This document shows positions 6,256 through 62,025 of a stretch of DNA of 64,000 nucleotides, one piece after another. The number at the start of each line of letters is the position of its first letter. Position 1 is the first letter of the stretch. A program made the position numbers and the translations under genes. The DNA is taken from NCBI GenBank assembly GCA_025456145.1, contig JALOLD010000048.1, forward strand, positions 6,731 to 70,730. Reading direction: 5' to 3'. This DNA is from Thermoanaerobaculales bacterium (lineage in GTDB: Bacteria > Acidobacteriota > Thermoanaerobaculia > Thermoanaerobaculales > Sulfomarinibacteraceae). Below the pieces are notes generated by a model. It saw only the letters and a list, made by a program, of their open reading frames with translations. It made no database searches and was not told the DNA's origin.

Positions 6256-9087
6256 ATGACCAGATCCGTGTTGCTCACAACGGTCCTGAGTATCTCGGCA
6301 GTTTTTTGCGGCGCAATTCGGGCAGATGCAGTCAAAGTCACCCTTGAGAAGGAACTCCGATTTTCTTACAGCGGGGCGTTTCTCGGGTTTGAAGAGCCAG
6401 ATCCTGCGCTGATCGATCGACTGGGCTTGTCCATCATCGCGGACTATCCCTCGTACCTAGCCGGCGAGGTTGGTGACGAGCGACTCGGTGCTTTCATCAC
6501 CACCGCAATGGAACACCAGCTGATGTACGCAATCCGGCGCGACTTCGATCTCATTCAGATCAACGGGTACACGTTTTCTTCGTTTGATGCTCCACCCCAG
6601 CTACCTCAGGGTCTTAGCCTCCCACATTACCCCGGCAACGTTGGGCTCTATCTCGTTCAGTTCGAGGCCCCTCTGACTCCTCAATGGCACGCCGCCCTGC
6701 ACCAGGCGACGGACGTAATTGCATACTTCCCCGAGAACACCTTTCTCGTCCGCTCAACGCCGAACAGCGCGCCCGATCTTGCAAACATCAGCGGCGTGCA
6801 ACACGTGAGCCTGTACCAACCTGCCTACAAGATATCTCGGTCGCTGCTGGACCGTAACAACACCCTCGACCTCACGACGAAGCTCGACGTCGGTCAAGAT
6901 CTAGATAGCCTCGCCAGCTTCGTCTCGACGCTCACAGGCAATCCAGCGACCGTTCACGGTGGATCTCGGCACGCGTTTTTACGGGCTCGCTTGACCCCTG
7001 ATGGCCTTGTGGCCCTCGCTCGGAGAGCCGAGGTCATCTGGATCGAGCCGACCCTGACCCCAGAATTCAGCGGAGAGCGCGATGCGACGATCGCGGCTGG
7101 CGAGCACGATGGCGATAGTCCGCATCGGTTCTTTCCCGGCGGTCACGACGGCTGGCTGAAGGACAAAGACCTCTGCACGCCGACGGGAAGCACTAACTGG
7201 CCGGCATGCATGCCTTACTGGACGAGAGTCGCCGTCATCGACTCCGGGCTGGACAGGACACTTTGCGCTCATTCCCAGTATGACGAAGAGACGGGCGTGT
7301 GCTCCCTATGGGAGGCTTTCGACATTAGCCCAGACCTCGATCACACCTCGAATCACACCGGCGCATGCCCACCGGACGGGCAGGGAATGGCAAAGTTCGA
7401 CGACTTCCTTCGATGTAGCGGGGAAGTCGTAGAAGACGCGTTCTTCTGTTCAGGCGACATCGGGCAGAACCACTGTGAAATACCGCCTTACCCACCGTTC
7501 ACAAATGGGTACTATGATTTCTCAGATCCCGCTGATCCCTTCCCTGCAGGACACGGAACCAGCGTCGCCTCGATCATCGCGGGCGACCCTCTGCCGGATT
7601 CCCCGGAGTCGGATCCCGACGGGTTCTTCCGCGGGACGGGCGTAGCTCCTTCTGCCCCGGTGGTGATCGGAAAATTCAAGGGACTCGCACAAGACCCAAA
7701 TGGCGGCGGCTCTTCGATGACTCACGTCCAGTTTGGCGAGTTGGTCTCGAGAATCCACGCCAACATCGGGGAAGTGAGGTTCTTCAACAACAGCTGGAAT
7801 GTCATCGAGCACGATAGCATCGGAACCCCCGTCGGATACGGCGGAGCCTCCGCCGTTGAGTACACACTGTTCTCCCAGACCGCCGACGAGATCGTTCGCG
7901 AGGCACAGCTCGACGGCGAGATCAACGAGGTCACTCTCATCTTCTCCGCCGGAAACTGGGAGGGTCTCCCCGACACCCAATGGTCAAAGTCGCCGGGCAA
8001 CGCCAAGAACGTCATCTCCGTGGGCGCAGCTCGCGGCTGGTCGGGGGAGCAGGGCCGACCGCACCCCGAATGCGCCGTAGTCCCCTTGGGTGACTCACAT
8101 CTAATCGGCGACATCGCGGGGGGGATCGAATCAGGAAACCCAGATCCGTTGATCTGGCACTCGAGGCGCGGTTATCTCAACGAAGTCGGCTCGGCGTCGG
8201 CTCACCCTAGGTACAAACCCGATCTTGTCGCCCCCGGAACGTACGTTGCGGCGGCGAGAACACAGGCGGCATCCTCCAGCGATGTGTATCGCTGCTTCTC
8301 AGGAACCAGCGCCGCCGCCCCGGTGGTCACCGGCGCCGCCGTACTGGCCGAGGCCTACTACTTCTACAAGATCAGCAACCAAACCGCCCTTCCCTCCCCG
8401 GCAATGGTCAAGGCCATGCTCGTCGCCCATGCGGACAGCCTGGTCGGCGGAACGGACCACTGGCCCGGAACGGCTCTTCCGGACTCGCCGTCCATGGCCC
8501 AGGGCTGGGGGCGGGTCAATCTCGATCGACTCATCCAGGCTCCACCGCCCGGCCAACAGCCAGTCGGCGAGGTCGCCATCGAACAGGACCACGACCCTAC
8601 TGTGGGCAACCTGTGGACACCCTCCGGGGAAGGTCGCCGCTTCATCTTCAGCGGTCAGTACTGGTCGAAACAGCTCGAGGTCAGCACCACGAGCAAGGAC
8701 ATCATCGTCGCGATGGTCTACACCGACGCCCCATCCGATCCGGCTGCGACCTCGCTCACGGTCAACGACCTCGACCTGAGCCTTTTCAAAATGGGAATCG
8801 GCCCGGGATCGGGTCACCGGTACTGGGGCAACCGGTTCCAGGCGGGATCCTGGTACTCGGAAAACACCGCAGGACAGGTCCTCCCCGAAGTGCCGTTCGA
8901 CGCGCACAACAACGTCGAGATCATCCGCATCCCGGCCGGATCCATCGCCGGCACATTCTGGGTGAAGGTCTCGGCGAGAGTCATCGACCGTCAGGCCGTT
9001 CCGGGCCTGGACTTCCAGAACCCTGTTCAGCACGATAACCAGGACTTTGCGCTCTATGTCTACAATGCCGATCCGGCGAGCGAGTGA
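6256..9087 (+). CDS. Secreted S8 (subtilase) serine peptidase
   Basis: Signal peptide; catalytic motifs VAVIDSG, GHGTSVASI, FSAGN and SGTSAAAPVVTG; QGWGRVNL; C-terminal NDLDL...NNVEIIRI beta domain. Codon usage is less GC-biased than the flanks. Confidence 0.9.
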   Translation: MTRSVLLTTVLSISAVFCGAIRADAVKVTLEKELRFSYSGAFLGFEEPDPALIDRLGLSIIADYPSYLAGEVGDERLGAFITTAMEHQLMYAIRRDFDLIQINGYTFSSFDAPPQLPQGLSLPHYPGNVGLYLVQFEAPLTPQWHAALHQATDVIAYFPENTFLVRSTPNSAPDLANISGVQHVSLYQPAYKISRSLLDRNNTLDLTTKLDVGQDLDSLASFVSTLTGNPATVHGGSRHAFLRARLTPDGLVALARRAEVIWIEPTLTPEFSGERDATIAAGEHDGDSPHRFFPGGHDGWLKDKDLCTPTGSTNWPACMPYWTRVAVIDSGLDRTLCAHSQYDEETGVCSLWEAFDISPDLDHTSNHTGACPPDGQGMAKFDDFLRCSGEVVEDAFFCSGDIGQNHCEIPPYPPFTNGYYDFSDPADPFPAGHGTSVASIIAGDPLPDSPESDPDGFFRGTGVAPSAPVVIGKFKGLAQDPNGGGSSMTHVQFGELVSRIHANIGEVRFFNNSWNVIEHDSIGTPVGYGGASAVEYTLFSQTADEIVREAQLDGEINEVTLIFSAGNWEGLPDTQWSKSPGNAKNVISVGAARGWSGEQGRPHPECAVVPLGDSHLIGDIAGGIESGNPDPLIWHSRRGYLNEVGSASAHPRYKPDLVAPGTYVAAARTQAASSSDVYRCFSGTSAAAPVVTGAAVLAEAYYFYKISNQTALPSPAMVKAMLVAHADSLVGGTDHWPGTALPDSPSMAQGWGRVNLDRLIQAPPPGQQPVGEVAIEQDHDPTVGNLWTPSGEGRRFIFSGQYWSKQLEVSTTSKDIIVAMVYTDAPSDPAATSLTVNDLDLSLFKMGIGPGSGHRYWGNRFQAGSWYSENTAGQVLPEVPFDAHNNVEIIRIPAGSIAGTFWVKVSARVIDRQAVPGLDFQNPVQHDNQDFALYVYNADPASE

Positions 9088-54513: not shown

Positions 54514-55311
54514 CTAGGGGCTGGTCAAGGACCAGAAGCCGGTCGTCCCGTCCTCGAAACCGTCGGCGAAGACGAGGTCGGTGGCGAACGGCCACTCGAC
54601 CTGCCGGGCCTGGTAGACCTCGGCCGGGGCGGTCGCCGGGACGGGGTCCTGGGCCCAGGCGGTGAGCTGGATCTGGTCGTACAGGTTCCAGCTCGTAGCG
54701 TCGAAGGTGATCGGCTGGACGACGGTCTCACAGGCGCCGGCGGCGACCGCGATGTCGACCCCGGCGAGACCCTGCATCACCGTGTTGCGGTTGTAGGACT
54801 CGGTCAGGGGGTAGGTCGCGAGCGACTGGACGACGAACACCCGCATCGTCTTGCCCGTCCCGCCCGGCTCGACGCACACCTCGACCGAGACCTCGAAGGT
54901 CGGGCCGGCGAGCTGGGTCGCCATGATGTCGACCGTGACATCGGTGGGAATCGCCTGCCGGGCGATGAGCTTGCTCTCGAAGGTGCTGATCGGCCAGGCG
55001 TCGAACAGCCCGTCGTAGTAGTACGACGGGTAGCCGAGGAAGATCGGGTCGTAGAAGGCCTTGCGGGCGTCACCCCAGGGGGTGGCGTAGCTGTCGGTGT
55101 GGTGGATCGAGATCGACGCGAACGTGTCGGGGTAGGTCTCGACGAGGTACGTGACCGTGGGACCCGCGGTCGTGCAGGTGCCTCACCAGTCCGCCGTGAT
55201 GTACTCCCCGAGCACCGTACGCTCCGCCGAGAAGACCTCTCCGACCGTGAAGATCGCCGCGGCGAGCGCCGCGCCGACCACCAGGGAAGCTCCGAAGGGC
55301 CCTGTTCTCAT
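54514..55311 (-). CDS. Predicted selenoprotein A: secreted Omp28-like thioredoxin-fold protein, W-U-G-T-C, 265 aa
   Basis: GAGGAGG before ATG 55311; signal peptide; ...EYITADW-TGA(55185-55183, codon 43)-GTC-TTAGP... continues in frame into ORF 54514-54924; ends VFADGFEDGTTGFWSLTSP. Confidence 0.85.
55153..55171 (-). promoter_or_regulatory. Candidate bacterial SECIS hairpin A
   Basis: GACCGCGG-GTC-CCACGGTC, starting 11 nt after the TGA; 7 of 8 pairs (one C.A mismatch). Confidence 0.7.
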
Positions 55312-55331: not shown

Positions 55332-55368
55332 AGATTGTATACAATCGCTCTCACATTGTATACAATCT
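55332..55368. promoter_or_regulatory. Twin palindromic operators ATTGTATACAAT in the divergent promoter region
   Basis: GATTGTATACAATC (55333-55346) and ATTGTATACAAT (55355-55366); centres 21 bp apart. Confidence 0.8.
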
Positions 55369-55420: not shown

Positions 55421-55987
55421 GTGACGGAAGCTCGCTCGCGCAGGACCAACCTCGCGATCGCTCGCCCGATGTGGCTCGCGATCGTGCTCGTCGCGGTCGC
55501 CGCGACCGCCGCCGCCGGGCCGCCGCCCGACTTCCGGCTCCAGGACCTCGACGGAAACTGGGTCACCCTGTCCGACCACGTCGGCAAGGACGTGGTCTAT
55601 GTGACCTTCTGGGCGACCTGGTGCGTGCCCTGTCGGCGCGAGATGCCCTACCTCCAGCAGCTCCACGAGGACCTCGCCGACCGGGGCCTGACGATCATCG
55701 GGGTCAACACCGACCCGCCGGGGACGACGAGCAAGATCAAGCCCTACATCAAGCAGTACAAGATCGGCTACCTCACCGTCCTCGACCCGAACAACAACGT
55801 CCTCGACAAGTACAACCCGACCCGCGAGCTGCCCTACGCGGTGCTCGTCGACCGCACGGGCAACGTCCACGAGGTCTTCGCCGGCTACCGCAAGGGCGAC
55901 GAGGTGCGGCTGCGCGAGAAGGTCCTCGAGCTGCTCGACGCACCGACCGGCGGGGAGGGGGAGGCTCCGTCCGGTGACCCGAGCTAG
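55421..55987 (+). CDS. TlpA/ResA-family thiol-disulfide reductase
   Basis: GGAGG before GTG 55421 (alternative ATG 55469); signal or anchor segment; PDFRLQDLDG, FWATWCVPCRREMP, LPYAVLVDRTG. Confidence 0.92.
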   Translation: MTEARSRRTNLAIARPMWLAIVLVAVAATAAAGPPPDFRLQDLDGNWVTLSDHVGKDVVYVTFWATWCVPCRREMPYLQQLHEDLADRGLTIIGVNTDPPGTTSKIKPYIKQYKIGYLTVLDPNNNVLDKYNPTRELPYAVLVDRTGNVHEVFAGYRKGDEVRLREKVLELLDAPTGGEGEAPSGDPS

Positions 55988-57464
55988 CGCCCTCGCGGCG
56001 GTGCTCCTCGTCGCCCTCGCCCCGACCGCGGCGGCCGGGGACGACGAGAGCCCGCCGGCCAAGCGCTACCGGATCTTCGGCCAGCTGACCACCGAGCTCG
56101 AGCTCAACCAGGCCGAGGACGAGAACGATCCCGAGGACGGCGACTACACCAAGCTCAAGCAGATCGTCGCGGTCAACCTCGAGTGGTCCAAGCTCACCGT
56201 CGGCGTCCAGCTCGAGCTGCTCGACTACTCCGACCCCGAGCTCGTCGACCGGCTCGACCTCGACCGGTTGCACGACACCCTCGAGCTGCGCCGCTACTAT
56301 GTCGACTACCAGGGCGACCACCTCTCGGGGCGGCTCGGCACCTTCTTCTCGTCGCTCGGCCGCGGGCTCACGCTGTATGTCCAGAAGAACGACGTGCTCG
56401 GCTTCGACGAGCCGATCCACGGCGCGTTCGCGAAGCTCAACCTCGAGCACTTCGACATCTCGGCGGTCGGCGGCACGGTGACCGAGCCCCAGCTCCAGAA
56501 CCAGTTCAACCGCGAGTTCGAGGACGAGGTCTATGGCGGCCGGGTCATTGCCCGCCTGCCCCTCGACCTCTACCTCGGCGGCTCGGCGGTCCGCGCCGAG
56601 CTCGACCGCTTCTTCCCCGAGGGCACCGACGAGGTCGAGGTCTGGTCGGCCGAGGGCGGCGGGACCGGGCTCTTCGGCTTGCTCGACATCGCCGCCGAGT
56701 GGTCCGAGCTGACCAAGACCGAGGCGACCCGGGTGCGCGACGGGTACGGCCGGTACTTCTCGGCGGCCGCCTATGTCGGTCCGGTCTCGATCCTCGCCGA
56801 GTACAAGGACTACTACAACTTCGCCTACCGCTACAACCTGCCGCCCAATGCCGGCCGCGCCGACGAGTCCTACGATCACAACGACGTCAAGGGACCGCGG
56901 CTGCTGGTCTCGGCCGACATCCTGGCGACCGGCTCGATCGTCCACGGAAGCTACGCCGAGTTCGACAGCCACAGGACCTCGAGCTCGCCCGGCGGCACCG
57001 AGGGCGACCGTCAGACCGAGTGGTACGCCGGGCTCGAGCAGACGATCGGCCGGGTCTACTTCCAGGGCAGCTACTTCGACCGGGACTGGCTCGACCGCGG
57101 GATCACCGAGACCCACACGATCGGCGACTTCCACCTGACGGTGGGCGGCTCGGGCGAGATCATCCTGGGCTGGGACGAGCGGCTCGAGGAGGCGGACTAC
57201 TTCAGCCTCGGCACCACCCGCACCACCGCCGCCTACTCGCTCTCGCCGTGGGGCACGGTGTCGCTGCGCTACTCGTGGGAGGAGCGCAGCGGCTTCGACA
57301 AGGAGGACTTCTGGGGCGTCGAGGTCCAGGCCCTGCCGCGCAGCGACCTGATCATCACGCTGTTCGGCGGGGGCGATCCGGGCGGTCTGGTCTGCGCCGG
57401 CGGTCAGTGCCGGATCGAGCCCCGCTTCAAGGGCTACCGGGCCAACATCACGTGGCGGTTCTGA
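55974..57464 (+). CDS. DUF6029-like outer-membrane beta-barrel with a C-terminal Cys pair
   Basis: Signal peptide; RLGTFFSSLGRGLTL; AEYKDY; ends GGLVCAGGQCRIEPRFKGYRANITWRF (terminal Phe beta-signal); overlaps tlpA. Confidence 0.8.
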   Translation: MTRASALAAVLLVALAPTAAAGDDESPPAKRYRIFGQLTTELELNQAEDENDPEDGDYTKLKQIVAVNLEWSKLTVGVQLELLDYSDPELVDRLDLDRLHDTLELRRYYVDYQGDHLSGRLGTFFSSLGRGLTLYVQKNDVLGFDEPIHGAFAKLNLEHFDISAVGGTVTEPQLQNQFNREFEDEVYGGRVIARLPLDLYLGGSAVRAELDRFFPEGTDEVEVWSAEGGGTGLFGLLDIAAEWSELTKTEATRVRDGYGRYFSAAAYVGPVSILAEYKDYYNFAYRYNLPPNAGRADESYDHNDVKGPRLLVSADILATGSIVHGSYAEFDSHRTSSSPGGTEGDRQTEWYAGLEQTIGRVYFQGSYFDRDWLDRGITETHTIGDFHLTVGGSGEIILGWDERLEEADYFSLGTTRTTAAYSLSPWGTVSLRYSWEERSGFDKEDFWGVEVQALPRSDLIITLFGGGDPGGLVCAGGQCRIEPRFKGYRANITWRF

Positions 57465-57532
57465 TGGCGACCCCCGGTCATCGAACCCCCGCATCGCGAC
57501 GCACATCTCCCCGACCGGGGATGGGAGACGGT

Positions 57533-59119
57533 ATGTTCACCAGGATCCGGCTCGTACCCGCTATCGTCCTCACGGCGACGCTGCTCATCGTCACCGTCGC
57601 CGGCGCCGCCGACCGGGTGGTGCTCGGCGAGTACTTCACCAACCTCTATTGAACCTCCTGTGCGACCACGGGTCCCGTGGTCGAGCAGATCGCCGAGGAC
57701 TACCCGGACCGGTTCGCCGCGCTGTCGATGCACGTCAACGGCGACGGCTTCGACACGCCCTGGGGGCAGGACCGGCTCGACTCGTTCTACGGCATCCCCG
57801 GCGCGGTCCCGACCTTCATGGTCGACGCGCTGTGGAACTGCCAGTCCCCCGGCGACTACCGGTACTACGTCGAGCAGCAGCTCGCCAGCCCAACCGACAT
57901 GACCCTCGAGCTGTCGGGCAGCCCGGTCGGCGGAGCGACCTGGGACATCACCGCGCGGCTCTGTCACGAGGGCAGCGGCTCGCGCCCGATCCGGCTCTTC
58001 ACCGCGGCCGCCCTCGACGGCTATCCCAACCCGCCGCGCCACTCGACCAACGTCCTGCGGCAGAACGCCTTCGAGACCGATCTGGCGATCGCCGGCGGCG
58101 CCTGCGAGACCGTCACGACGCGGATCACCTTCGACCCCGAGAGCATGGCCGCCACCTCGGACATCGTGATCATCGCCTGGGCCCAGAAGCCGGCCGCCAC
58201 CGCGCCGACGACGGTCTACCAGGCGGCCGTCATGCGCTGGCCCTTCCCGGCCGGCAGCCAGCTCACCACCATCGAGATCGAGCCGGCCGACGCGACCGTC
58301 GCGGTCGGCGGCACGGTCGGCTTCACCGCCCAGGGCAAGGACCAGCACGGCGCCGAGTACCCGCTCGTCAATCCCGTCTGGAGCCTCGGGACGGGGAGCG
58401 GCGGTGGGACCTTCGACCCCGGTACCGGGACCACGACCACCTTCACCGCGACCGCGGTCGGAACCCGCCAGCTCCTGTGCAGCGAGGGCGGCGTCACCGG
58501 CGGCGCCATCGTCACCATCACCGCAGCGCCGCGCCTCGCGACCATCGAGATCGAACCTGCCGACGCCTCCGTCGCGGTCGGCGGGACGGTCGCCTTCACC
58601 GCCACCGGTCGCGACCAGTACGGCGACGAGTTTCCGCTCGGCGCCCCGGTGTGGACGATCGACGGCGACGGCGACGGGACCTTCGAGCCGGCCACCGGCG
58701 CCGCCACCACCTTCACCGCCTCGTACCCCGGGAGCGCGACCGTGCGCTGCACCGACGGCGCCGTCGTCGGCAGCACCGGGCTCGAGATCACCGGCGACGC
58801 GCCGCGGCTCGCCACGATCACGGTGAGCCCGGCGAGCGCGACCATCCGGGTCGGCGACAGCCTCGCGCTCAGCGCGACCGGCACCGACCAGTACGGCCGC
58901 GCCATCGCCCTCGCCGACCCGGTCTGGCGGGTCGAGGGCGTCGGCGCCGGCACCCTCGAGCCGGCCGGCGGCAGCGCCGCGACGACCTTCACCGCCACCG
59001 CGGTGGGCAGCGTCTCGGTGATCTGCAGCGACGACGGCGTCGAGGGGTCGGCGGCCGTCACCATCACCGCCGCCGGTCTGCCCGCGCCGCGCAAGGTCAC
59101 CAGGCGGGTCGCGCCGTGA
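57533..59119 (+). CDS. Predicted selenoprotein B: secreted Omp28-like thioredoxin fold (Y-U-T-S-C) plus three Ig-like (Big_2) repeats, 528 aa
   Basis: ATG 57533; signal peptide; DRVVLGEYFTNLY-TGA(57650-57652, codon 40)-TSC-ATTGPVV continues in frame into ORF 57677-59119. Confidence 0.85.
57664..57682 (+). promoter_or_regulatory. Candidate bacterial SECIS hairpin B
   Basis: GACCACGG-GTC-CCGTGGTC, perfect 8-bp stem starting 11 nt after the TGA. Confidence 0.78.
58262..59070 (+). repeat. Three ~90-aa Ig-like coding repeats
   Basis: L.TI...PA.A...VG......A.G.DQ.G...PVW...G.GT..P....TTFTA repeated three times. Confidence 0.85.
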
Positions 59120-59265
59120 CGCCATCCGCCGACGCCCGCCGGATCACCAGGGCGCGACCCGGTCTCGCGGCACCGTATCGAATCCTCGATCGGCCCTCGG
59201 CCGGGCCGACTGGAGGTGTGGCCCGAACCCACACGGCCGAACAGCTCAGGAGAGAGGGAGGACCA

Positions 59266-61023
59266 ATGCGCAAGGCAACACTTCTGATCGGCATCCTGCT
59301 CGCAGCCGGGATCACGATCGCCGCGGACGGCGTGCCGCTCGACGCCTATCCGAAGACGAGCATCGCCGAGGACGCCACGGCGACCTGGTGCGGCTTCTGC
59401 CCGAACGCCTACGCCGGGCTCGAGATCGTGCACCAGAACTTCGGCTACGACGCCTTTGTCAGCGTCCGCTACTACGAGACGAGCGGCAGCTACGGCACCA
59501 CCGAGACCGACGCCCGCAACGACGCCTACGGTGTCACGGGCTTTCCGACGGTGATCATCGACGGTACCAACCGCTTCGTCGGCGCCGGTACCGCGACCGC
59601 AGCCACCGGCCAGCCCTACCTCAGCACGGTCGAGGTGGCAAGCCTGGCGCCGGCCCCGATTCGGATCGACATCGACTCGTTCAACCCGGCGACCGGTGCA
59701 ATCTCGGCCACCGTCACCATGTACTCGGCGACCGCCTCGCTGAGCAACGAAACCGTGCTCTTCGTGCTCGTCGAGGACAACGTCGCGGCGAGCCACACCC
59801 ACGTCGCCCGCGACCTGATCTACGACACCATCACCCTGAGCGGCGCGGGCTCGACCGCAGTGTTCAACAAGAGCTTCGTGATCGACCCGGGCTGGAACCA
59901 GGGCAACCTCCACGCGGTCGCGCTCGTCCAGCACGAAAACCCCCCGGGTGTTCCCCGGGAGGTCCTCCAGGCAGCCTCGACCTGGCCCCAGCCGTCCTAC
60001 CGGGTCCGCGGCATGGTGCCCTTCAGCCCGATCAGCTTCGGCGCATCCTCGGGCACGCAGATGGGCGAGGAGTTCACGGTCATGAACACCGGGCTGACCG
60101 ACACCTTCACCATCGACGTCGTGGTCGACTCGGCGCCCGCCGGGTGGCAGACGACTCTGGTCGACGGTTCCGGAACGCCGCAGACCCCGCCCTACGCTTT
60201 TGGCCTCAACAACGAGGCAGCCACCACCTTCCGGGTCGACGTGACGCCGAGCTCGTCGGGCCAGATGGACTACCACGTCGAGATCGACTCGCCCAACCTG
60301 AGCTCGCCTCTGACCATCCCCTTCACCTACTTCACCGACGACCTCGACGTGATGCTGGTCGACGACGACGGCGGCGACCCCTTCGAGCTCTACTTCACCG
60401 CGGTGCTCGACGCCGCGGGCAAGAGCTACGGCGTCTGGAACCGCAGCCTGAGCCCGCTGTCGGCGGACGTCGCGACCAACACCAACGTGCTCATCTGGAA
60501 CGCCGGCTTCACCTCGCCGTCGCTCGACGCCGACGACAAGGCCTTCGTCGGCCAGTACCTCGACGCCGGCAAGGCGCTCTTCTTGAGCGGTCAGGACGTC
60601 GGCTGGGACCTCAACGAGAACAACCCCGACCCCGTGTGGTACCAGACCTACCTGCACGCCACCTATATCCGTGACGACACCAACATCATGTACCTCGACG
60701 GCGTCGCCGGCGACCCGGTGAGCGACGGGTTGACCCTGCACATCGCCGGCGGCTCGGGCGCCAACAACCAGGACTACCCGGACGAGATCGAGGCCGCCGA
60801 CGCCGACGCCACCGAGATCCTGCACTACCAGGGCGACGGCTGCGGCGCGATCCGGGCGCTCGACAGCGTGTCGAAGGCGCGGCTGGTCTACCTCGGCTTC
60901 GGCTTCGAGGGCATCGACGACGCCCAGGACCGCTCGGACCTGCTGCTCGACGCGCTGGGCTGGATCGGCCCCGAGCTCCTCATCGACGGCTTCGAGACCG
61001 GCGACCTGAGCGCCTGGCAGTAG
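59266..61023 (+). CDS. Secreted Omp28-like thioredoxin-fold protein, Cys form (W-C-G-F-C), 585 aa
   Basis: GGAGG before ATG 59266; signal peptide; EDATATWCGFCP, YGVTGFPTVIIDG, LVEDN...HVARD, LHAVALVQ...EVLQA; ends LIDGFETGDLSAWQ. Confidence 0.85.
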   Translation: MRKATLLIGILLAAGITIAADGVPLDAYPKTSIAEDATATWCGFCPNAYAGLEIVHQNFGYDAFVSVRYYETSGSYGTTETDARNDAYGVTGFPTVIIDGTNRFVGAGTATAATGQPYLSTVEVASLAPAPIRIDIDSFNPATGAISATVTMYSATASLSNETVLFVLVEDNVAASHTHVARDLIYDTITLSGAGSTAVFNKSFVIDPGWNQGNLHAVALVQHENPPGVPREVLQAASTWPQPSYRVRGMVPFSPISFGASSGTQMGEEFTVMNTGLTDTFTIDVVVDSAPAGWQTTLVDGSGTPQTPPYAFGLNNEAATTFRVDVTPSSSGQMDYHVEIDSPNLSSPLTIPFTYFTDDLDVMLVDDDGGDPFELYFTAVLDAAGKSYGVWNRSLSPLSADVATNTNVLIWNAGFTSPSLDADDKAFVGQYLDAGKALFLSGQDVGWDLNENNPDPVWYQTYLHATYIRDDTNIMYLDGVAGDPVSDGLTLHIAGGSGANNQDYPDEIEAADADATEILHYQGDGCGAIRALDSVSKARLVYLGFGFEGIDDAQDRSDLLLDALGWIGPELLIDGFETGDLSAWQ

Positions 61024-61212: not shown

Positions 61213-62025
61213 ATGAGCAACGCAGCGATGCAACGGGTGCTGGTCGCGCTCGCGGCGGTGTCGTTGGCCGCGAGCGGCGCCGTCGGCGCGGATCGGATGG
61301 TGGTCGTCGAGCACTTCACCGCCACCTGGTGAGGGTCCTGCGTGACCGCGGGTCCCGTGGTCAGCAACATGATCGACGCCTACCCGAACACTCTCGCCTT
61401 CATCGCGATCCACGACGGCGACAGCTACGAGGTCCCCTGGGGGACCATGCGCGATGGGGTGTACCAGGCGGCCTGGACCCCCTTCGACTGCCAGGACGGT
61501 CTGTATGACGCGTGGCCGATCACCAGCTACGAGTCGAAGTTCCTCGCCCGCCAGGCGATCCCCACCGACGTCACCATCGACCTCGAGGTCTTCGGCGCCG
61601 GCACCGACTGGAACGTCAGCGCGGTGGTCTGCATCGAGCCGGGCGGGACCGGCAAGACGATGAAGGTCTGGATGGCCCAGGTCCTCGACCACTACGGTCC
61701 GGCGAACTTCGACCGGAACATGGTCCGCTCCGGCACGAACGGGGTCGAGATCACCCTCGCCCCGTCCGAGTGCACGACCGTCACCGAGAGCCTCACCCTC
61801 GACTCGGTCAGCCAGGCGTCGCCGGACACCGTCAAGTTCTTCGCCTGGGCCCAGGACACGGTCTTCGTCTACAACCCGCAGGTCCAGTACATCAACGGAA
61901 CCTGGTACGGCGCCTGGTTCGGCGAGATCTACCAGGGCGCCAAGGCCCTCGCGCCCTTCGAGGGCGCCTTCCGGGACGGCTTCGAGGACGGTACCACCTC
62001 GGCCTGGGGCAGCGTCTCGCCCTGA
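61213..62025 (+). CDS. Predicted selenoprotein C: secreted Omp28-like thioredoxin-fold protein, W-U-G-S-C, 270 aa
   Basis: GGAGGAGG before ATG 61213; signal peptide; DRMVVVEHFTATW-TGA(61330-61332, codon 40)-GSC-VTAGPVV continues in frame into ORF 61342-62025; close paralogue of A; ends FRDGFEDGTTSAWGSVSP. Confidence 0.87.
61344..61362 (+). promoter_or_regulatory. Candidate bacterial SECIS hairpin C
   Basis: GACCGCGG-GTC-CCGTGGTC, 8-bp stem with one G.U pair, starting 11 nt after the TGA. Confidence 0.78.

Follow-up and report, generated by a model that had tools for sequence, protein, structure and literature searches.

The window, a 64,000-nucleotide stretch of contig JALOLD010000048.1 from a Thermoanaerobaculales bacterium (positions 6,731 to 70,730 of the forward strand), belongs to a 4.56-Mb draft genome and has a G+C content of about 70% across the region considered here. 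It carries a cluster of five co-oriented genes and one divergent gene (Table 1), the nearest named relatives of which come from metagenome-assembled genomes of Thermoanaerobaculales and Holophagae, within the Acidobacteriota. The cluster encodes a TlpA-like thiol:disulfide oxidoreductase, an outer-membrane beta-barrel of the DUF6029 family, and four thioredoxin-fold proteins resembling Omp28 and the surface protein HBP35, three of which are read as selenoproteins with selenocysteine (Sec, U) in a UxxC site. Computation gives the genes with their Sec decoding signals, a conserved gene order, natural fusions of the first two proteins, and a confident predicted complex of these two in which the TlpA-like protein occupies the barrel. 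Taken together, these results suggest that the cluster may be an outer-membrane plug-and-barrel redox device that carries thiol reducing power outward, a proposal to which we give a little less than an even chance.

A first-pass annotation made from the nucleotide letters had listed a tlpA gene with WCVPC, an overlapping barrel gene whose only cysteines lie in CAGGQC, and UxxC and CxxC genes, one with three Ig-like repeats. All of these are present in the sequence, and two more UxxC paralogues (B and C) lie outside the stretch that it covered. The arrangement of the cluster is not due to chance, because a TGA stands at the same codon in 28 related genes and dozens of loci share the gene order.

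Table 1. Features of the TlpA-DUF6029 cluster, in positions of the window (SECIS, selenocysteine insertion sequence)
Feature	Position	Strand	Details
Omp28/HBP35-like thioredoxin-fold selenoprotein, paralogue C	54514..55311	-	TGA 55183-55185 (DWUGTC); SECIS-like hairpin ~55153-55171; C-terminal DGFEDG...W tag, 54514-54570
Palindrome ATTGTATACAAT, two exact copies	55334-55345 and 55355-55366		divergent promoter region; copies 21 bp apart
TlpA/ResA-like thiol:disulfide oxidoreductase	55421..55987	+	signal peptide; WCVPC, Cys codons at 55622 and 55631
DUF6029 outer-membrane beta-barrel	55974..57464	+	Pfam DUF6029; CAGGQC at 57393-57410 (C474, C479)
Omp28/HBP35-like selenoprotein, paralogue A	57533..59119	+	TGA 57650-57652 (NLYUTSC); SECIS-like hairpin 57664-57682; three 91-residue Ig-like repeats (Pfam Big_2) from residues 245, 336 and 427, ~58265 to 59080; basic tail 59075-59119
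Omp28-related CxxC paralogue	59266..61023	+	TWCGFC, Cys codons at 59389 and 59398; C-terminal tag DGFETGDLSAWQ, 60985-61023
Omp28/HBP35-like selenoprotein, paralogue B	61213..62025	+	TGA 61330-61332 (TWUGSC); SECIS-like hairpin 61344-61362; C-terminal DGFEDG...W tag, 61975-62025

The TlpA-like protein matches Pfam AhpC-TSA (85.4 bits) and Redoxin (76.4 bits), both above cut-off, and begins with a hydrophobic N-terminal signal that ends between AAA and G. The cysteines of its WCVPC motif are residues 68 and 71, and the motif is invariant in 23 aligned orthologues. Its best NCBIfam matches, to ResA (NF002854, 98.6 bits, cut-off 170) and TlpA (NF047696, 74.5 bits, cut-off 230), both fall below the equivalog cut-offs. 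By these profile scores it is a member of the superfamily and not an orthologue of characterised TlpA or ResA, and it is predicted to be a periplasmic protein that serves as the plug of the DUF6029 barrel. The genome holds eight TlpA-profile matches in total and a single DsbD_TM gene, which lies on another contig.

The barrel gene starts with a GTG codon 14 nt before the tlpA stop (TAG, 55985-55987), so that the two genes overlap by 14 nt, and GGAGG lies upstream of this start. Its product matches Pfam DUF6029 (PF19494) with 57.7 bits (cut-off 27) in the N-terminal third and at the final 28 positions of the profile. It has exactly two cysteines, C474 and C479, 17 residues ahead of the C-terminal ...TWRF. 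An AlphaFold2 (AF2) model of the barrel built from 43 sequences (pLDDT 86.7, pTM 0.78) has about 24 strands, in which the turns from even to odd strands are all short and the loops from odd to even strands vary in length; by this topology argument, the segment that joins strand 23 to the last strand would be extracellular. In the model, this last extracellular loop forms a small hairpin (strands 471-475 and 478-482) in which C474 faces C479 across a two-residue GG turn. Cross-strand disulfides of such hairpins are often strained and redox-labile. The best structural matches found with Foldseek are the 24-strand usher pores FimD and PapC (TMq ~0.55) and TonB-dependent receptors, with MtrB lower down, and in all of these a plug or a partner occupies the lumen.

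The cysteine pair is kept well beyond this locus. C[AS]GGQC is found in every full-length close homologue (97 matches), and a pair of cysteines lies in the last 50 residues of all 129 full-length distant DUF6029 representatives, spaced as Cx4C with one Cx3C, where the 129 are those of at least 400 residues among the best 150 of 357 distant representatives. A family alignment of 47 sequences, with a mean identity of 22%, has only seven invariant columns, two of which are C474 and C479. Just before the last strand, the window sequence DPGGLVCAGGQCRIEPRFKG fits the C-terminal motif GG.xC.[GSN]G.C[RK]..P.F.G, a hallmark defined in this analysis and not by Pfam. Judged from these alignments, the pair is a hallmark of the DUF6029 family as a whole rather than of this operon. 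The commonest phyla of the DUF6029 clusters in a protein atlas are Cloacimonadota, WOR-3, Myxococcota, and Eisenbacteria, and the family is also found in Acidobacteriota.

The association of the barrel with a redoxin is just as regular. In 25 of 25 genome loci, three of them with barrels 26% identical, a co-oriented TlpA-like gene lies directly 5' of the barrel gene. DUF6029 is present in 16 of 301 sampled Acidobacteriota genomes; among the 15 of these other than the present one, whose barrels are 25-29% identical, all 14 with upstream sequence have a TlpA-like gene directly 5' of the barrel, often two in tandem. Of 80 metagenome loci from a low-GC subgroup (A3), on contigs that are not mutually independent, 63 have at least 700 bp of upstream sequence, and in 62 of these a TlpA-profile match lies on the same strand no more than 1.3 kb upstream. 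When 10 of these upstream low-GC genes were searched against Pfam, all 10 proved to encode AhpC-TSA/Redoxin proteins. With eight TlpA-profile matches in the genome, the probability of adjacency by chance is about 0.2% per gene; the locus counts overstate independence, since the loci within each set are interrelated. A second redoxin is found in many loci, whereas the window operon has only one. In one set of low-GC loci (L091, L093-L103, and L109), the TlpA-like protein adjoining the barrel is 268-272 residues long, and the one member tested (L094:4186-4989) has a C-terminal TonB_C domain (E 1.6e-13).

In some members of the family the two proteins are joined. Single-chain TlpA-barrel fusions, consisting of a signal peptide, a TWCxPC redoxin domain, and a barrel with the cysteine pair, were found in 9 of 16 long DUF6029 representatives tested (out of 21 of at least 600 residues), and the nine belong to nine separate 50%-identity clusters. 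One fusion has two redoxin domains, and three of the nine have no cysteines other than those four. The order of the domains is the order of the genes, and it is also the plug-then-barrel layout of TonB-dependent receptors. A candidate fusion among the close relatives, P0093 (629 aa, with redoxin domains and a barrel), was dropped, since its contig, L036, reads the barrel in several frames; the tlpA, barrel, and Omp28-like genes of this locus all occupy several frames, which looks like assembly frameshifts.

A complex of the mature barrel (residues 22-496) with the mature TlpA-like protein (residues 33-188) was predicted from custom alignments. It scored 0.91 (0.93, 0.90, and 0.91 in separate runs), and the best of three controls scored 0.00. 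The pass mark of the predictor is reached by 58 of 80 solved complexes and by 2 of 110 mismatched pairs, counts that are only a rough guide here because custom alignments were used. At least 87% of the contacts agree between runs, and the pLDDT of the partner is at least 85. In the predicted complex, the barrel makes contact through alternate residues that face the lumen, in the periplasmic half of almost every strand, and through most of the periplasmic turns, together with the extracellular loops 124-140, 289-297, and 472-480, the last of which includes both C474 and C479. On the TlpA side, the predicted contacts include residues 65-73, the WCVPC stretch, and residues 132-138, which we take to be the cis-Pro loop that lies beside the active site in thioredoxin folds. 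The model can be read as TlpA filling the pore on its periplasmic half, with the cysteine hairpin dipping in to meet the active-site face of TlpA. Such a model supports binding and does not show it. The columns of the barrel conserved in the family are of little help, as 7 of 23 lie in the interface and about 4 would be expected (counted by hand), a difference too weak to use. With the predicted complex and the natural fusions side by side, it is predicted that the partner is housed in the barrel lumen, and a physical coupling of TlpA and barrel has good computational support.

The first-pass annotation had proposed that electrons pass from periplasmic TlpA through the barrel cysteines to thioredoxin-fold proteins on the surface, and it had allowed that the cysteine pair might not be conserved. 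This last doubt is removed by the invariance of the pair across the family, and, within the reach of computation, the other conditions it had named for refutation were also decided in its favour. The relay is supported in part: the complex, the fusions, and the adjacency of the genes bear out a coupling of TlpA with the barrel, while the transfer of electrons is the part that would follow only by reasoning. The geometry has to be redrawn: TlpA would be the plug, and the hairpin would reach into the lumen to meet it rather than lie on the surface.

The same evidence can be set against a simpler explanation, in which the genes are only loosely co-regulated. In that case, TlpA would reduce the Omp28-like proteins within the periplasm, the barrel would be an ordinary porin with a structural disulfide, and the complex would be an artefact of prediction. 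The low confidence of the cysteine hairpin in the barrel-only model (~59) would be in keeping with this, as would the fact that Cx4C is not a classical redox motif and that the predictor lets through an occasional false pair (the 2 of 110 above). Loose co-regulation would not account for single-chain fusions in nine separate clusters, for a pair that adjoins in 25 of 25, 14 of 14, and 62 of 63 loci with very divergent barrels, or for controls that score nothing; furthermore, a 24-strand barrel left plugless would be an open hole in the membrane. Consequently, this explanation is regarded as improbable.

The remaining genes of the cluster encode the presumed acceptors of the proposed relay. An AF2 model of the 270-residue Sec paralogue B, built from 29 sequences (pLDDT 85.9), has a thioredoxin domain followed by a beta-sandwich, and the first-ranked Foldseek match is HBP35 (5y1a; E 6.7e-10, TMq 0.62, 253 columns); a DUF1223 protein and the DipZ C-terminal part come next. 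The family profile places the U/CxxC site on the WCGPC of thioredoxin. Matches at the sequence level are weak. The CxxC paralogue scores 30.4 bits against Pfam Omp28 (PF11551, cut-off 34.9) and 41.5 bits against NCBIfam Omp28_seleno (NF045500, cut-off 200), and the Sec paralogues score 16.6-25.1 bits or do not match, all below the curated cut-offs. Two further cysteines, residues 140 and 187 of paralogue B (in VCxExGG and GxCxxV), are kept in every one of the 29 Omp28-like domains aligned; in the beta-sandwich they are probably joined in a structural disulfide. The C-terminal part of the CxxC paralogue, about 330 residues, has no assigned family, and the leads that a protein atlas search with it produced, to clusters of Ig-like or CARDB-like type, were all below 0.9. 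Paralogue C matches the family profile with 317 bits and one TGA. A fifth Omp28-like paralogue lies on a short separate contig (C3:187-960, - strand), with one in-frame TGA and 232 bits to the family profile. For HBP35 itself, the published account (PMC2907840) describes a surface protein of Porphyromonas gingivalis that is secreted through type IX secretion (T9SS) and reaches the surface via its C-terminal domain; C48 and C51 are the residues through which it reduces insulin in vitro, it has no known source of electrons, and what its thioredoxin domain does physiologically is stated there to be unknown.

The selenocysteine reading of the UxxC genes draws on several features. The genome encodes the Sec machinery, with tRNA-Sec, selB (314 bits), selA (499.5 bits), and selD (373.9 bits), all above cut-off. 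The G+C content at third codon positions upstream of each TGA is gene-like, at 0.86-0.92 (0.86 for paralogue C), and the signal peptide and a AAERVVLGEYFT motif upstream of the TGA are kept in orthologues. The shared TGA of the 28 related genes is the first position of the redox motif. In two orthologues (L028 and L029), Cys stands in place of the TGA, and the downstream peptide changes from TTGPVV to GPAAEEL; conversely, the L015 orthologue of the window CxxC gene has Sec (TGA) at the first Cys. A SECIS-like hairpin with an 8-bp stem begins 14 nt after the TGA and carries GGU in its loop. Compensatory changes are seen at four of the eight stem pairs across the 28 sequences, and the stem persists in a third paralogue group, which codes for another peptide (TTMRYVV). 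Rfam at the gathering threshold reported no SECIS family in the window, only tRNA. On these comparative grounds, the selenocysteine reading holds. An NCBI model named 'Omp28-related selenoprotein' already exists, which the window proteins match weakly (16.6-41.5 bits, cut-off 200). Thus, Sec in Omp28-like proteins was already known, and the window copies are distant members.

Among the loci closely related to the window, all 20 in which the sequence continues past the barrel have an Omp28-like gene there. In the low-GC loci, an Omp28-like profile match lies upstream in 54 of 56; the gene before tlpA, of about 360 residues, encodes a lipoprotein (...FSCDRF.H...) with CxxC near residue 155 and weak Omp28 matches, and among the genes that come after the barrel, all 11 tested encode a T9SS sorting domain, several of them with weak Omp28 matches and a CxxC. 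In three distant loci, a large Ig-domain redoxin stands upstream in place of the Omp28-like gene, and the operon consists of this redoxin, TlpA, DUF6029, and a full-length DsbD. A survey of DUF6029 neighbourhoods, which the first-pass annotation had called for, thus finds TlpA, DUF6029, and Omp28-like genes together in Acidobacteriota and in distant loci with T9SS signals. The surface location that it had assigned to the Omp28-like proteins is favored by the lipoprotein and T9SS signals of these relatives and by the HBP35 fold, but for the present organism it is an assumption. The window proteins are without a T9SS domain and have a DGFExG...W tail or Ig repeats instead. In one Acidobacteriota genome, the post-barrel Omp28-like protein (L069:6123-7379, - strand) ends in a dockerin type I domain (E 1.1e-6), which is another hint of an extracellular location.

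This neighbourhood has led to the consideration of a second alternative, namely, that the device serves assembly. The barrel would anchor or export the Omp28-like proteins, and TlpA would maintain the state of their Sec and Cys residues, and of the barrel cysteines, while they pass the oxidising periplasm; the redox chemistry would then serve assembly and not a lasting supply of electrons. TlpA-family proteins do serve the maturation of specific periplasmic proteins, and the flanking positions of the Omp28-like genes in the close (downstream) and distant (upstream) loci would be expected; so would the conserved basic C-terminal tail that the post-barrel paralogue has as its own. Yet the flanking proteins of the distant loci have their own export signals, a T9SS domain or a lipobox, and therefore need no barrel translocon, and a lumen filled by TlpA leaves no path for export. 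Furthermore, tblastn found an Omp28-like neighbour in just 3 of 15 sampled Acidobacteriota genomes, so that 12 of the 15 have the pair with no Omp28-like neighbour detectable in this way. An assembly role is therefore judged decidedly unlikely.

A third possibility is that no electrons leave through the barrel at all. In this case, TlpA would be the removable plug and the cysteine hairpin the latch of a large import or export pore, gated by the redox state of the periplasm or the surface, and a ligand caught by surface HBP35-like proteins would be a candidate cargo. The nearest folds of the barrel are indeed plugged transporters and ushers, TlpA is predicted to lie in the lumen, the fusions have the plug-then-barrel order, and one subgroup of loci has a TlpA with a C-terminal TonB_C domain. 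Moreover, HBP35 is described in its report (PMC2907840) as binding hemin and as required for growth at low hemin. On the other side, transport partners (ExbBD, ABC importers) were not consistently present among 63 neighbour proteins scanned. A gated channel would also leave unexplained why the CxxC/UxxC thioredoxin site is kept and why the cost of Sec is borne, and the presence of DsbD in the operon of three loci points to a supply of electrons. Given these findings, a gated channel appears rather unlikely, although it deserves consideration.

In the redox relay that we prefer, cytoplasmic reducing power would enter the periplasm, most likely via DsbD, for which such entry is established. It would be passed to TlpA, docked or resident in the lumen of the ~24-strand barrel with its active-site face toward the loops folded into the pore. 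TlpA would reduce the cross-strand pair C474/C479 by thiol-disulfide exchange, and this pair would in turn reduce the U/CxxC site of the HBP35/Omp28-like proteins on the outer face. In most such proteins here, Sec would be the attacking residue (UxxC), which would make the last step fast, and these proteins would then reduce some extracellular or surface substrate. What is inferred here comprises the flow and direction of electrons, the intermediate role of the cysteine pair, the contact of the Omp28-like proteins with the barrel, and their location on the surface in this organism.

Several points weigh against this proposal. The WCVPC region and the cysteine hairpin both consist of interface residues in the model, which does not place them in touch. 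A cross-strand Cx4C pair could merely staple the hairpin, and its invariance would fit such a structural role equally well. The predictor may partly recall the general plug-in-barrel theme of ushers and TonB-dependent receptors; we know of no solved thioredoxin-in-barrel complex, while the theme itself is well represented among solved structures. If the TlpA active site is buried on the barrel, its recharging by DsbD is puzzling, and a shuttle may be needed. As to the acceptors, Omp28-like neighbours are scarce in the sampled Acidobacteriota, and of 69 metagenome loci only 22 have an Omp28-like profile match downstream. In this organism, the signal peptides of the Omp28-like proteins are ordinary ones and lack a lipobox, and the presumed place of these proteins on the surface would be argued from the relatives and from an uncharacterised C-terminal tag. 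Finally, the neighbourhood survey covered the low-GC subgroup A3 and the Acidobacteriota.

A further point of this kind comes from the literature and brings with it another function for the barrel. According to one report (PMC9603273), some proteins like the Wzi barrel that are encoded near OPX genes resemble DUF6029 by HHpred, and AlgE is among the weaker fold matches of the barrel model (TMq 0.3-0.4), so that DUF6029 might be a porin for polysaccharide export. Among the 63 neighbour proteins scanned and the six proteins of the window, none matched a polysaccharide export family, the constant neighbour is a redoxin, and the model has about 24 strands, not 18. A function of this type is consequently considered very improbable.

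Two other features of the locus concern its regulation and the fate of its products. The palindrome ATTGTATACAAT has two matches between the divergent selenoprotein gene and tlpA, where none would be expected (100 shuffles), and it is kept upstream of tlpA in eight related loci. The only other exact copy in the genome (C34:24608) lies directly 5' of a gene for a GntR/FCD regulator, which is followed by a class-V aminotransferase gene, of the family of the cysteine desulfurases and selenocysteine lyases. The pair of palindromes is thus probably a GntR-type operator, and the copy at the GntR/FCD gene points to a dedicated regulator. A C-terminal tag of the approximate form LFxDGFE[SDT]Gxx(S)xW(S)xxxP, with the stop codon right behind it, ends 48 long open frames in the genome, in which GFE.G...W has 56 six-frame matches. 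It is present on three of the four Omp28-like paralogues of the window and is kept in orthologues. The tag includes no transmembrane segment or basic tail, and no sorting domain of NCBIfam or Pfam matched it; it would seem to be a C-terminal signal for sorting or secretion that has not been described. Paralogue A, which is without the tag, ends instead in a conserved basic tail rich in Pro and Arg, GLPAPRKVTRRVAP, with GLPKPRRVKARHTP and LPAPRRPGGRR... as the corresponding tails in its relatives (the L015-L032 orthologues).

Parts of the proposed device have counterparts among known systems. The window proteins share with HBP35 and the Omp28 families (PF11551, NF045500, and NF033782) an N-terminal thioredoxin fold, a redox motif at the CxxC position, and a beta-sandwich; they differ in their weak sequence matches, below every curated cut-off, and in having neither a T9SS domain nor a lipobox. 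The TlpA-like protein has the AhpC-TSA/Redoxin fold, WCxPC, and signal peptide of TlpA, ResA, and CcmG, but it is always paired with or fused to an outer-membrane barrel and is predicted to lie inside it rather than being free or anchored in the inner membrane. Like the FimD/PapC ushers and the TonB-dependent receptors, the complex would be a barrel of 22-26 strands filled by a separate protein or an N-terminal plug, except that here the plug would be a thioredoxin-fold redox enzyme with an invariant cysteine pair at the predicted interface, and there is no sequence relationship. LptD-LptE is likewise a large barrel with its lumen filled by a partner. MtrCAB (6r2q), in which a periplasmic electron carrier in a barrel sheath meets a surface redox protein, offers an analogy and not a homology, since the chemistry here would be thiol/selenol-disulfide exchange instead of haems, and the cluster contains no cytochrome genes. 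DsbD, too, is a cascade of cysteine pairs that moves reducing power across a membrane to thioredoxin-fold acceptors; however, it spans the inner membrane with helices, whereas the pair proposed here would lie on a loop inside an outer-membrane beta-barrel.

Neither the redoxin-DUF6029 pairing nor its fusions, the plug model, or the link to HBP35-like surface proteins was found described in the literature searched, which was without subscription journals and family-database notes, and the parts of the HBP35 literature available there describe no link to a TlpA-barrel pair. The individual families are known. Even without the relay, the complex of TlpA and barrel and the conserved module would still be new, and comparative evidence supports both well. 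In its broadest form, the proposal makes the TlpA-plugged DUF6029 barrel an equivalent of DsbD in the outer membrane and a widespread conduit for thiol/selenol electrons, powering thioredoxin-fold enzymes on the surface; this is held to be possible but doubtful.

To our knowledge, no pathway has been described that takes thiol reducing power across the outer membrane of bacteria. Cell surfaces nevertheless bear thioredoxin-fold proteins whose active sites are intact, and the report on HBP35 (PMC2907840) leaves the role of its thioredoxin domain unexplained. With a thioredoxin-plugged barrel, a function would be at hand for DUF6029, a family so far uncharacterised, and a third plug-and-barrel architecture would take its place beside LptDE and MtrAB. 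If the broadest form of the proposal holds, the conduit would be the source of electrons for surface thioredoxins such as P. gingivalis HBP35, and it would define an extracellular reductase activity, for example toward disulfide-bonded proteins, oxidants, or chalcogen compounds, sharpened in this lineage by selenocysteine. A barrel plugged by a thioredoxin would make the question of how reducing power crosses the outer membrane directly testable. In addition, the selenoproteins of these bacteria would be placed outside the periplasm, which would bear on why they invest in selenium.

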